Shown: positions 25,368 through 27,395 of the stretch, in pieces
Layout: each line of letters starts with the position of its first letter
How positions within the stretch are numbered: position 1 is the stretch's first letter
NCBI GenBank assembly: GCA_035639235.1
Contig: DASQYL010000229.1
Span: forward strand, 7 to 64,006
Direction of reading: 5' to 3'
Source: Pyrinomonadaceae bacterium
Lineage (GTDB): Bacteria; Acidobacteriota; Blastocatellia; Pyrinomonadales; Pyrinomonadaceae
Length of the DNA stretch: 64,000 nt
Translations under genes and position numbers: made by a program
Notes under the pieces: generated by a model
The model's database searches: none
Told to the model about the DNA's origin: nothing
What the model saw: the letters and a program-made list of their open reading frames with translations, nothing else

Positions 25368-27395
25368 ATGAGCACCGCAATCAAACAGATCGTGTCAGAA
25401 CCGGGAGCGGTAGCGATCGGATCAACCACGCAACTCAGAACTGAAAACTCAGAACTGAAAACTAACTTACCGAATTCACGCCGCATCTACATCGACGGCC
25501 AACAGCGCGGCGTGCGCGTCCCGTTTCGCGAGATCGATCAGAATCCTACGCGCAACTTCAAAAACGAGTTGGAAGAGAATCCGCCCGTGCGCGTTTACGA
25601 TACGAGCGGTCCATACGGCGACCCTGCGCTGCGCCCTGAGGTACGCGAAGGGCTGCCGCAATTGCGACGCGAGTGGATCATCAATCGCGGCGACGTCGAA
25701 GAATACGAAGGCCGCTCGATTCAGCCGATCGACGACGGCTATCTCAGTTTCGAAGCTGCGCAAACCGCGCGCGATAAAGCCAAGGGTCTAAATCGTCTCG
25801 AAGATTTTCCGACACTGCGGCGCACTCCTCTGCGCGCGAAGAAGGGATCGTGCGTGACGCAGATGCACTACGCCAAGCGCGGCATCATCACGCCCGAAAT
25901 GGAGTTCATCGCCATCCGCGAAAACCTCGGCCGCGCCGCACAACGGGGCAGTAGCCCGACACCGGGGTCCCCAAGCGGGCAGCCCGCTTGGGGTGGGGCG
26001 GTGAGGAAGGGCTCCGACGATCGTTCATCACTCCATCACCAACACATCGGCCAGTCCTTCGGCGCGTCCATCCCAAGCTACGTCACGCCTGAATTCGTCC
26101 GCGACGAAGTTGCCCGCGGTCGCGCGATCATTCCCGCAAATATCAATCACCCGGAGAGTGAGCCGATGATCATCGGCCGCAACTTCCTGGTGAAAATCAA
26201 CGCGAACATCGGCAACTCCGCGGTGCTCTCTTCAATCGACGATGAAGTCGAAAAGATGCGCTGGGCGATCAACTGTGGATCAGACACGGTTATGGATCTT
26301 TCAACCGGAAAGAACATCCACGCGACGCGCGAATGGATCATCCGCAACTCGCCCGTGCCCATCGGCACCGTGCCGATCTATCAGGCGCTGGAAAAAGTCG
26401 GAGGTAAAGCCGAAGAGCTGACCTGGGAGATCTTCCGCGACACTCTGATCGAACAAGCCGAGCAGGGCGTCGATTACTTCACGATTCATGCCGGAGTGCG
26501 CCTGCCTTACATTCCGATGACAGCGAAACGCACGACGGGCATCGTGTCGCGTGGTGGCTCGATCATGGCCAAGTGGTGTCTGGCGCATCACGAAGAGAGT
26601 TTTCTCTACACGCGCTTTCGCGACATCTGCGAAATCATGGCCGCGTACGACGTTTCGTTCTCGCTCGGCGACGGCCTGCGTCCGGGCTCAATTGCCGATG
26701 CGAACGATGAAGCGCAATTCGCCGAACTCGAAACGCAAGGAGAGCTGACGAAGATTGCCTGGGAATACGATTGCCAGGTGATGAACGAAGGGCCGGGACA
26801 CATCCCGATGCACATGATCAAAGAGAACATGGAAAAGCAGCTCGAATGGTGCGGCGAAGCGCCGTTCTACACGCTCGGCCCGCTCACGACCGACATCGCG
26901 CCTGGTTACGATCACATCACGTCGGCCATAGGAGCTGCGATGATTGGCTGGTACGGTACGGCGATGCTGTGCTACGTCACGCCCAAAGAACACCTCGGTC
27001 TGCCGAACAAGAAAGATGTGAAAGACGGCGTCATTGCTTACAAGATCGCTGCGCATGCCGCCGACCTCGCCAAAGGCCATCCCGGCGCTCAATACCGCGA
27101 CAATGCTTTGTCGAAAGCCCGTTTCGAATTCCGCTGGGAAGATCAATTCAATCTTTCACTCGACCCTGAAGTCGCTCGTGAGTATCACGACGAAACCCTT
27201 CCCCAGGAGGGCGCGAAATTAGCCCACTTCTGCTCGATGTGCGGTCCGCATTTCTGTTCAATGAAGATCACGCAGGATGTGCGGGAATACGCGGCGACCC
27301 ACGGCGTGTCGGATGCGGATGCCTTGACGGTGGGGATGGAAGAGAAGAGTAAGGAGTTTGTGGAAAAAGGGGCGGAGATCTATAACTCCCAGTAA
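25368..27395 (+). CDS. thiC: phosphomethylpyrimidine synthase
   Basis: Long collinear matches to ThiC: [86 protein letters not shown]. Confidence 0.97.

Follow-up and report, generated by a model that had tools for sequence, protein, structure and literature searches.

In-frame palindromic elements are classic in Rickettsia, where the Rickettsia palindromic elements (RPEs) are about 100–150 bp long and, to our knowledge, confined to that genus. Mobile repeats of less than 40 nt (21–27 nt) are said to have been described by Elhai and co-workers in 2008 as the SDR elements of Nostoc, which reportedly exist in short and long forms and nest in other repeats. In a secondary summary, RPEs appear as selfish palindromes that lie in frame within genes that stay functional, adding a peptide at tolerant sites (Ogata et al. 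2000, via PMC3733652). For repetitive extragenic palindromic (REP) sequences, copies inside open reading frames (ORFs), repeat ends that provide stop codons, location within other palindromes, and stems rich in G.T pairs have been documented (PMC3733652). The class-3 Y1 transposases (TnpA_Y1), as far as the available text of their description extends, occur mainly in Planctomycetes, Acidobacteria, and Proteobacteria, carry the signature NHVH ... W[TA] ... Y----Q, and are encoded by genes bordered by hairpins that have a CnGA foot and occur in high copy number (PMC6006769). Here, we compare with these systems a palindromic coding segment of thiC, the gene for the thiamine enzyme ThiC (HMP-P synthase), of a Pyrinomonadaceae bacterium, located in a 64,000-nt stretch of contig DASQYL010000229.1 (hereafter, the window). 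We read this segment as tolerated selfish REP-type DNA, two elements deep, that is a passenger rather than a new function (probability roughly 0.78).

Two nested repeats in the thiC coding segment

A preliminary description of this DNA had treated positions 25945–25997 as one element inserted in thiC. Its coordinates, reading frame, and perfect 11-bp stem are borne out by our check of the sequence: the 16-mer GGGGCAGTAGCCCGAC occupies 25945–25960, and the palindrome CCGGGGT-CCCCAAGCGGG-CAG-CCCGCTTGGGG-TGG occupies 25962–25996, with stem arms at 25969–25979 and 25983–25993. The unity of the element, however, does not hold, as the coding segment is two nested repeats, element B inside element A, and the right half of A lies beyond the end assigned at that time. 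The left half of A, CGGGGCAGTAGCCCGAC (25944–25960, forward strand), is identical to the family consensus and reads RGSSPT. The B insert follows (25961–26000, forward strand), as established from filled and empty alleles, family, and fold; its 40 nt stand in place of the single C of an intact A, which gives a net gain of 39 nt, or 13 codons. The right half of A, GTGAGGAAGGGC (consensus GTGAGGGAGGGC; 26001–26012, forward strand), is recognized from the intact A of relatives and reads VRKG.

The thiC genes of two relatives (L082 and L083) have an intact A (...GCAGTAGCCCGACC|GTGAGGGAGGGC) and no B, the same thiC codons there reading ...CGGGGCAGTAGCCCGACC|GTGAGGGAGGGCTCC... and encoding the peptide QRGSSPTVREGS. 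Because these relatives carry an intact A at the same codons, what had been called the 5′ part of the element belongs to a separate repeat of 30 nt, as its left half. At the point of A marked by the bar, the thiC genes of the window and of L081 have exactly 39 nt extra. Comparison with these relatives delimits the insertion, and the L081 insert is a 39-nt homologue at the same position. In the predicted fold of A, the insertion point of B lies at the edge of the apical GUGA loop, and A together with B is predicted to form a single extended hairpin (−40.8 kcal/mol), with a weak z-score of −1.78.

This z-score and the G+C richness of the segment are the points that speak for a resemblance arising by chance from low-complexity G+C-rich sequence, or for an assembly artefact. 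We consider such an explanation hardly credible, given that shuffles of the window produced no match to the stem-loop pattern (dinucleotide shuffles) and none to the 16-mer; that the flanks and loop are conserved in at least 120 genomic stretches; that L081, an independent contig, carries this 39-nt insert at the very same codon; and that thiC retains its reading frame and every ThiC motif.

Element A, CGGGGCAGTAGCCCGACCGTGAGGGAGGGC, is a 30-nt REP-type repeat of Pyrinomonadaceae/Blastocatellia, which yields the peptide RGSSPTVREG when translated in the thiC frame. Its exact 26-mer occurs in at least 118 genome stretches, all from Acidobacteriota and mostly from Pyrinomonadaceae/Blastocatellia. 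An inverted partner lies within 150 nt of 33 of the 132 copies, as in REP doublets forming hairpins (REPINs), and A has a GTAG motif (CAGTAGCC). In the window, a short-query nucleotide search (blastn-short) finds 4–5 copies of A, 4 copies of a third repeat, element C, and 2 copies of B; no Rfam family matches A, B, or C beyond chance. The 16-mer GGGGCAGTAGCCCGAC has five matches in the window against 0.31 expected and does recur, as had been reported, in the 3′ ends of rnpA (49642–49657, reverse strand) and of a sigma-factor gene (55858–55873, reverse strand), as well as at 49581–49596 (forward strand), with a diverged form at 46763.

An inverted, REPIN-like doublet of A, with arms on both strands, spans 49580–49658, and its right arm gives the RnpA tail ...RGSSPTVREGAITKERRPR*; the A copy at 55845–55874 (reverse strand) completes the gene of an extracytoplasmic function (ECF) sigma factor (55864–56469, reverse strand), contributing its closing codons as well as its TAA stop. 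The RnpA and sigma-70 identities of these genes are confirmed by Pfam, and the ends of both are set by repeat insertions. In rnpA (49599–50048, reverse strand), A forms the last ~19 residues of the protein, RGSSPTVREG of them coming from A itself.

Element B follows the pattern CCGGGGTCCCC-N7-CAG-N7-GGGGTGG. The related pattern CGGGGTCCCC-N7-CAK-N7-GGGGTGG has matches in at least 120 genome stretches; about 90% of the matches listed are from Pyrinomonadaceae/Blastocatellia, and a few are from subdivision-6 Acidobacteria, Chloracidobacterium, Luteitalea, and metagenome-assembled genomes (MAGs) of soil Chlamydiae. The 126 distinct copies represent 40 variants of the stem, in which positions 6–10 alternate between G-C, C-G, and A-T while pairing is kept at ~93–97% per position, and the base ahead of CGGGG is C in 122 of the 126. 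Since position 5 is A-T in 66 copies or G.T in 56 (44%), with an invariant 3′ T, the pairing of B is favored on one strand only. B is 13 codons long and open in all six frames. Inverted doublets of B were not seen, and target-site duplications were not consistent at its junctions with A, with C, or with unique DNA.

B is found at a fixed point of another repeat in 70 of the 126 copies, as sorted automatically: in C (45 copies; ...GAGCGG-AC-B-TGG-TAGCGACC), in the LECG repeat (13 copies, either orientation), or in A (12 copies at unrelated loci; ...CCCGAC-(A/C)C-B-G(G/A)CGGT(G/C)AGGG). Composites of A and B are present at 10 loci besides the window thiC. The insert is 39 nt long in A and in C alike, and its insertion point in C lies within the GGTA loop. 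The other 56 copies comprise those in at least three further recurring hosts and those in unique DNA, of which the copy in the thiC leader of the window is an example. Hairpins with B-like flanks and loop and with A+T-richer stems (e.g., GAAGACG/CGTCTTT) are present in L115, L140, L147, L152, L185, and L196, which are soil Chlamydiae MAGs and two "uncultured bacterium" MAGs, sometimes in tandem and 66 nt apart; they reflect either cross-phylum spread or bin contamination.

Repeats at the ThiC linker and in other genes

The thiC coding sequence (25368–27395, forward strand) is intact and encodes 675 aa, as judged from its Pfam domains (ThiC-associated domain, aa 34–111; ThiC_Rad_SAM, aa 164–636; scores of 613.5 and 102.6 bits for the two) and from its C-terminal CX2CX4C cluster motif, CSMCGPHFC. 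The protein has a near-full-length match to Caulobacter ThiC (3EPM/4S2A; E ~5e-269, HMMER), in which the alignment breaks at the linker, query residues 194–227 being unpaired against ~5 residues in the crystal protein. This linker connects the N-terminal region and the (β/α)8 core. That the insert lengthens a variable linker between RENLGR and QH.GQSFGA, as first described, is confirmed in an intact thiC: the RENLGR-to-QHIGQSFGA linker has 35 aa in the window, as opposed to ~18 aa in relatives without a repeat, and more distant relatives have a short, repeat-free linker such as EMALHAMSEHAKDDRSSL.

Linker length varies from ~14 to more than 60 residues among 120 ThiC relatives of 83–91% identity, with recognizable types as different as QRGSSPTVREGS (element A), LECGDLSPLS..KAATSRRTPN, LECGGNDAALDS...KRRQGRRTPN, ERGHLGRN..SGQDARAPR, VRRPPACS..STPEACVPR, GSADVLVRN, and TDFSLC. 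Exact-peptide counts were zero for four of the types other than A. At the nucleotide level, the linker DNA of four further types and of L001 and L002 matches unrelated loci in each case, often as inverted pairs, and the linker repeat of L001 is that of L399 in opposite orientation. At least six dispersed repeat families have been found at this one linker site. In one of the relatives, P0074, a ThiC segment is tandemly duplicated just ahead of the repeat-derived linker, which points to replication slippage or recombination at the site.

The linker types are scattered over a neighbor-joining tree of 582 conserved columns, incongruent with the ThiC phylogeny, in a tree that is itself poorly resolved at 90–97% identity. 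The nearest relatives of the window ThiC are P0004, with another linker type (96.7%), and P0002, with type A (95.7%), and the other allele with both A and B, P0101 in L081, is 89.9% identical to the window ThiC in the conserved columns. Third-codon identity in the thiC core of the four sequenced loci is 57–70%, whereas A remains identical at 29–30 of 30 positions; because of this difference, A is taken to be renewed or homogenized at the DNA level instead of drifting as an ordinary linker. Altogether, ongoing turnover of repeats at the linker fits better than a fixed functional peptide.

These same observations bear on the possibility that A and B reached thiC as a unit, through gene conversion or recombination in which another A+B composite replaced a resident A, or through strains trading thiC alleles, rather than by a fresh insertion of B into the A already there. 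At 10 other loci there are composites with identical junctions, the two A+B alleles are not sisters, having A-only and other types closer to them, and A is at consensus while the synonymous sites of thiC have diverged, as it would be under concerted evolution. However, the homology arms would be just 12–17 nt long, two independent, target-specific insertions of B give the same tree pattern, and the tree is poorly resolved. We therefore regard arrival as a unit as possible but rather unlikely.

Lodging of such repeats in frame within protein genes is common, a lineage-wide habit. At least 100 open codons are present on both sides of 23 of the 129 sampled B copies (~18%), and of 22 of the 132 A copies, most of which read GSSPTVREG. 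B is nevertheless rarer in ORFs than random positions are, with 40% versus 71% having at least 40 open codons on both sides. Ten B-bearing ORFs are real genes by Pfam, and nine of them have domains on both sides of the insert, the exception being a peptidase S9, whose domain is only downstream of it. These in-frame hosts are a molybdopterin oxidoreductase, two AcrB-type pumps, the peptidase S9, Mfd, a transketolase, a ThiL-like protein, PrmA, a LigD-like ligase, and an RlmI-like methyltransferase. The A+B peptide seen in ThiC recurs, with the ending (A/T)VREG, in the peptidase S9 and in one of the AcrB pumps, and in unrelated genes B is found in both orientations and all frames.

Four ORFs of the window contain in-frame copies of element C (GTCAGAACCGGGAGCGGTAGCGACCGGATCA), in which GTAG occurs as GGTAGCG. 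One copy (GTCAGAACCGGGAGCGGTAGCGATCGGATCA; 25388–25425, forward strand) is in the N-terminal tail of ThiC itself, where C is present in some relatives and absent from others; it is 97% complementary to a copy in an ORF for a FAD protein (3527–3564, reverse strand), recognized by blastn-short, ORF, and Pfam. The remaining copies are located in a fusion protein, between its LigB and AMMECR1 domains (5230–5262, forward strand; peptide ASESRAVATGSS) and inside a PEP-mutase domain (34423–34457, reverse strand; peptide VVPEPGAITTES), both by Pfam, so that two of the three copies besides that of ThiC are within or between Pfam domains. In L082 (10020–10065), the C of the ThiC N-terminal tail has the palindrome TCCCGACAGGTCGGGA in place of CCGGGAGCGG, and this palindrome ends where B nests in C (ahead of TAGCG); the insertion point of B in C thus appears to accept more than one kind of insert.

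Transposases, the thiC leader, and the status of the insert

A Y1 gene of ~165 aa lies between inverted copies of A in L224, L252, and L271, and a paralogue in L097, 50% identical to the A-flanked proteins, lies between inverted copies of C that carry B. An alignment-based scan retrieved 573 relatives of these proteins; the best 80 are nearly all from the same lineage, and inverted C copies flank many of these 80 loci. At the Y1 loci, C has the form GTCAGAACC-N5-GCGGTAGCG-N5′-GG, with stems that covary around a GGTA loop. The proteins contain N96-H97-x-H99 (NHVH), PW[ATV], and Y----Q (YVLLGQ / YVVNGQ / YVEYDQ), and the flanks of their genes read GT-CAGA-ACC...GGTAGCG... (C) and ...C-CCGA-CCGTGAGGG (A). 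Judged by motifs and context, rather than by the profile of the authors who defined it, the A- and C-flanked Y1 proteins belong to class 3 as the available text presents that class.

Further Y1 genes were noted in two places. The MAG MFD09848.bin.2.92 (L097, L319–L324) holds at least six near-identical (92–100%) class-3 Y1 copies, and the four best-matching ones (L319, L321, L322, L324) each have 130-nt inverted arms with C and nested B, which looks like an insertion sequence (IS)-like burst and not like the single-copy habit of REP-associated tyrosine transposases (RAYTs). In L402, the contig of P0068, a gene with a recorded Pfam Y1_Tnp hit (21245–21700) lies 9 kb downstream of thiC.

In our reading of the insert as a passenger, the 30-nt element A, partnered in this lineage with a class-3 Y1 (HUH, RAYT-like) transposase, occupies the ThiC linker, and the 39-nt G+C-rich hairpin of B sits exactly within its predicted apical loop. 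A Y1 transposase that recognizes the hairpin of B may have mobilized it in trans in single-stranded form, and B may prefer the loops of other REP hairpins. Because B is free of stops in six frames and 13 codons long, and A has no stop in the reading frame concerned, the composite would simply be translated, and because the linker tolerates almost any length and sequence, it would persist as a passenger whose 13 extra residues are probably neutral and without function. The preliminary description had spoken of a domesticated insertion, for which we find no support: the insert is polymorphic in close relatives, where A-only alleles exist; the site is held by unrelated repeats in sisters, the families in the 83–91% relatives being out of step with the ThiC tree; and the module occurs in many unrelated proteins.

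Several results weigh against interpreting the insert as a passenger moved in this manner. There is no transposase gene in the 64-kb window, the Pfam Y1_Tnp profile gives the Y1 proteins 17.5 bits, below its 23-bit cut-off, and B occurs at Y1 flanks solely as the C+B composite, in the one MAG represented by L097 and L319–L324. The 39 nt of B contain no GTAG or CGTC tag, and the immediate flanks of B are no more complementary than random junctions, as measured by crossing pairs in the whole fold and by 9-nt in-register pairing. An AlphaFold2 model of the window ThiC, built on a 36-sequence alignment of close relatives, has a mean pLDDT of 34 and is unusable for judging the surface exposure of the linker. 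The ThiC insert is presumably translated, as judged from its open frame alone. Finally, B or B-like hairpins lie in or near thiC in L001, L081, and L082 as well as twice in the window, which leaves room for a local role.

The notion that the flanks of B are generally complementary at the apex of a host hairpin was dropped, both pairing tests having given random values. Because of this negative result, an apical-loop location is limited to A and C, where it is suggested by the predicted fold of the former and the stem covariation of the latter. More tentatively, B may be a "repeat of repeats", i.e., a 39-nt module that specifically enters REP hairpins (A, C, LECG, and others) at their single-stranded apical loops via class-3 Y1 transposases and travels with them into genes, certain inter-domain linkers, that of ThiC for one, being fast-turnover "landing pads". 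We consider this extension more doubtful than probable; if it is true, a sizeable share of linker diversity in Blastocatellia proteins would have been written by selfish DNA.

The second copy of B in the window lies in the thiC leader (25136–25170, forward strand; stem CCCCAGCGGGG/CCCCGCTGGGG), between aptamer and terminator, and is not nested in another repeat. It was rightly described as a sister of the coding copy, to which it is 83% identical without gaps, with one compensated change per arm (CCCCAGCGGGG/CCCCGCTGGGG vs CCCCAAGCGGG/CCCGCTTGGGG). The coding 34-mer is identical at 34 of 34 positions to copies in L089, L094, L105, L150, and L187, and the leader 34-mer is identical at 34 of 34 to copies in L108 and L133. 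Local duplication of the leader copy into thiC was ruled out, as the two are different stem variants, each identical to copies in other genomes. The leader copy is an independent B, lodged as a self-contained hairpin between the thiamine pyrophosphate (TPP) aptamer and the terminator.

This aptamer (24947–25139, forward strand; RF00059, 56.8 bits against a gathering score of 54.3) is detected only with permissive Rfam filters, the default ones missing it because of an 85-nt insert in P3. The insert (24996–25081) has AATCGGC heptamer repeats at 25046–25078; L001 has another palindromic insert in P3, which is short in L081 and L082. The intrinsic terminator, ACCGTTCCGTCC-TTTG-ATGGAGCGGT followed by a T-run (25176–25211, forward strand), is the presumed expression platform and is kept in L001, L081, and L082. 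L081 and L001 have 6–7 nt between the 3′ end of the aptamer and the terminator (GACCGTTCC.TCC...GGAGCGG, then a T-run), the window has atcg-B-ccat, 43 nt in total, and in L082 an insert of about this size, with the core GGGGCAGCCCGCT, has decayed. Leader B and the terminator are predicted to fold as two independent hairpins (z = −4.7).

The location of this copy raises the question of co-option, in which the leader and coding hairpins act jointly in thiC expression, as protein sites, as mRNA-stabilizing or ribosome-pausing hairpins, or as part of the expression platform, or in which the peptide serves ThiC. Both B copies of the window are less than 830 nt apart, on one transcript and in the same orientation, the leader copy is placed exactly between aptamer and terminator, B or B-like hairpins are found at thiC in L001, L081, and L082 too, and the presence of a G.T wobble in 44% of copies agrees with a structure made by one strand, whether RNA or single-stranded DNA. 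Yet the positions vary: the L001 copy is downstream of the terminator in another repeat, that of L082 is decayed, and L083 has neither riboswitch nor B. In addition, close relatives have A-only or wholly different linkers, the same hairpin occurs in both orientations, in all frames, and in unrelated genes, and repeats of the kinds in which B nests are simply frequent in the thiC leader. Co-option is therefore improbable in our view, clearly more so than joint arrival of A and B, and the passenger interpretation is retained.

The surroundings of thiC contain further repeats. Between the terminator and the thiC start lie the palindromes CCCGGGTGAGCGAGCGAAGCGAGCGTAACCCGGGG (25279–25313) and GAGCCCGCGAAGCGGGCGA (25336–25354), the former being shared with L081, present in a variant form in L082, and possibly related to a recurring B host elsewhere. 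In L083, the contig of P0018, the 188 nt upstream of thiC (9813–10000) have an inverted A-like pair, GTCAGAAGCCCG...CGGGCTTCTGAC, and no TPP riboswitch by Rfam, so that thiC regulation may differ there. Matches to the Acido-Lenti-1 RNA (RF01687) lie at 29040–29087 and 30639–30684 (forward strand), with a weak one at 25252–25284 (reverse strand); L082 has five copies, and L001 also has matches. In the window, they fall in a ~75-nt direct repeat that is present twice, as two blocks that overlap (28988–29062 and 30688–30760), and the Acido-Lenti-1 "sRNA" may be one more such repeat family. Elsewhere, a direct repeat of ~130 nt (2885–3011 and 16307–16435; 13.4 kb apart, 74–91% identity) lies in or next to intergenic DNA, and a tandem 21-nt repeat, CGCAGGCGCAGGTGCAGCAAT..., at 58103–58199 inside the ORF 57337–59031 would encode AQ-rich heptad repeats.

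Comparison with described repeat systems

We did not meet Blastocatellia in the repeat literature searched, and found in it no description of the A, B, and C families of this lineage, of a 39-nt nested module, or of a ThiC linker hot spot. The REP- and RPE-type behavior of these families within ORFs is known in kind, and it is the families themselves, the nested module, and the linker hot spot for which we found no description. The practical consequence is that RGSSPTVREG, SEPGAVATGS, and PGSPxGQPxWGG in proteins of Acidobacteriota are repeat-derived peptides and not conserved motifs; when taken as motifs, they can lead to errors in alignments, in domain boundaries, and in the calling of genes (starts, C-terminal tails, and stops). 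The clean natural filled and empty sites, differing by 39 nt, are informative on how very small hairpin elements move, and a hot spot like that of the ThiC linker, should it prove general, is relevant to the shaping of protein linkers by selfish DNA.

SDRs, which are cyanobacterial, differ in sequence from A and B. Of the earlier characterization as a REP/MITE-like element, the REP-like palindromic repeat stands, and the likeness to MITEs (transposable elements of the miniature inverted-repeat type) does not: MITEs are 70–300 bp long, with terminal inverted repeats and target-site duplications, whereas B is a single hairpin of 39 nt without terminal inverted repeats or a consistent duplication.

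The similarity to REP/REPIN-RAYT systems (PMC3733652, PMC3116915) is extensive. It includes palindromic repeats of 20–40 nt in high copy number, GTAG in A and C, inverted doublets of A (33 of 132), Y1 genes between inverted copies of A or C, G.T pairs in stems, repeat ends that serve as stop codons, some in-frame copies in ORFs, and insertion within other small palindromes. In contrast, B has no GTAG or CGTC tag, the GTAG of C lies in the loop and 3′ arm and not in the 5′ foot, ~17–18% of the sampled A and B copies are in long ORFs, a high share for repeats termed "extragenic", and at least three other repeat families have B precisely nested in them, as 39 nt.

With the "REPtron-like" class-3 TnpA_Y1 genes (PMC6006769), this system shares the transposase signature and length (~165–210 aa), high-copy flanking hairpins whose CnGA foot reads CAGA for C and CCGA for A, and several gene copies per genome (at least six in MFD09848.bin.2.92). 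The published account, in its available text, covers flanking structures and copy number, and that text describes no in-frame genic copies, nesting, or B-like module (PMC6006769). The Blastocatellia repeats tie in-frame repeats to these poorly studied transposases and extend in-frame REP/RPE behavior to a major soil phylum.

RPEs, for which the RPE literature searched names no transposase partner, are similar in that A and B are likewise palindromes inserted in frame. They differ in that A and B measure 30 and 39 nt, are nested one in the other, and include, in A, an element tied to a Y1 transposase; size and lineage set the repeats of the thiC segment apart from those of Rickettsia.

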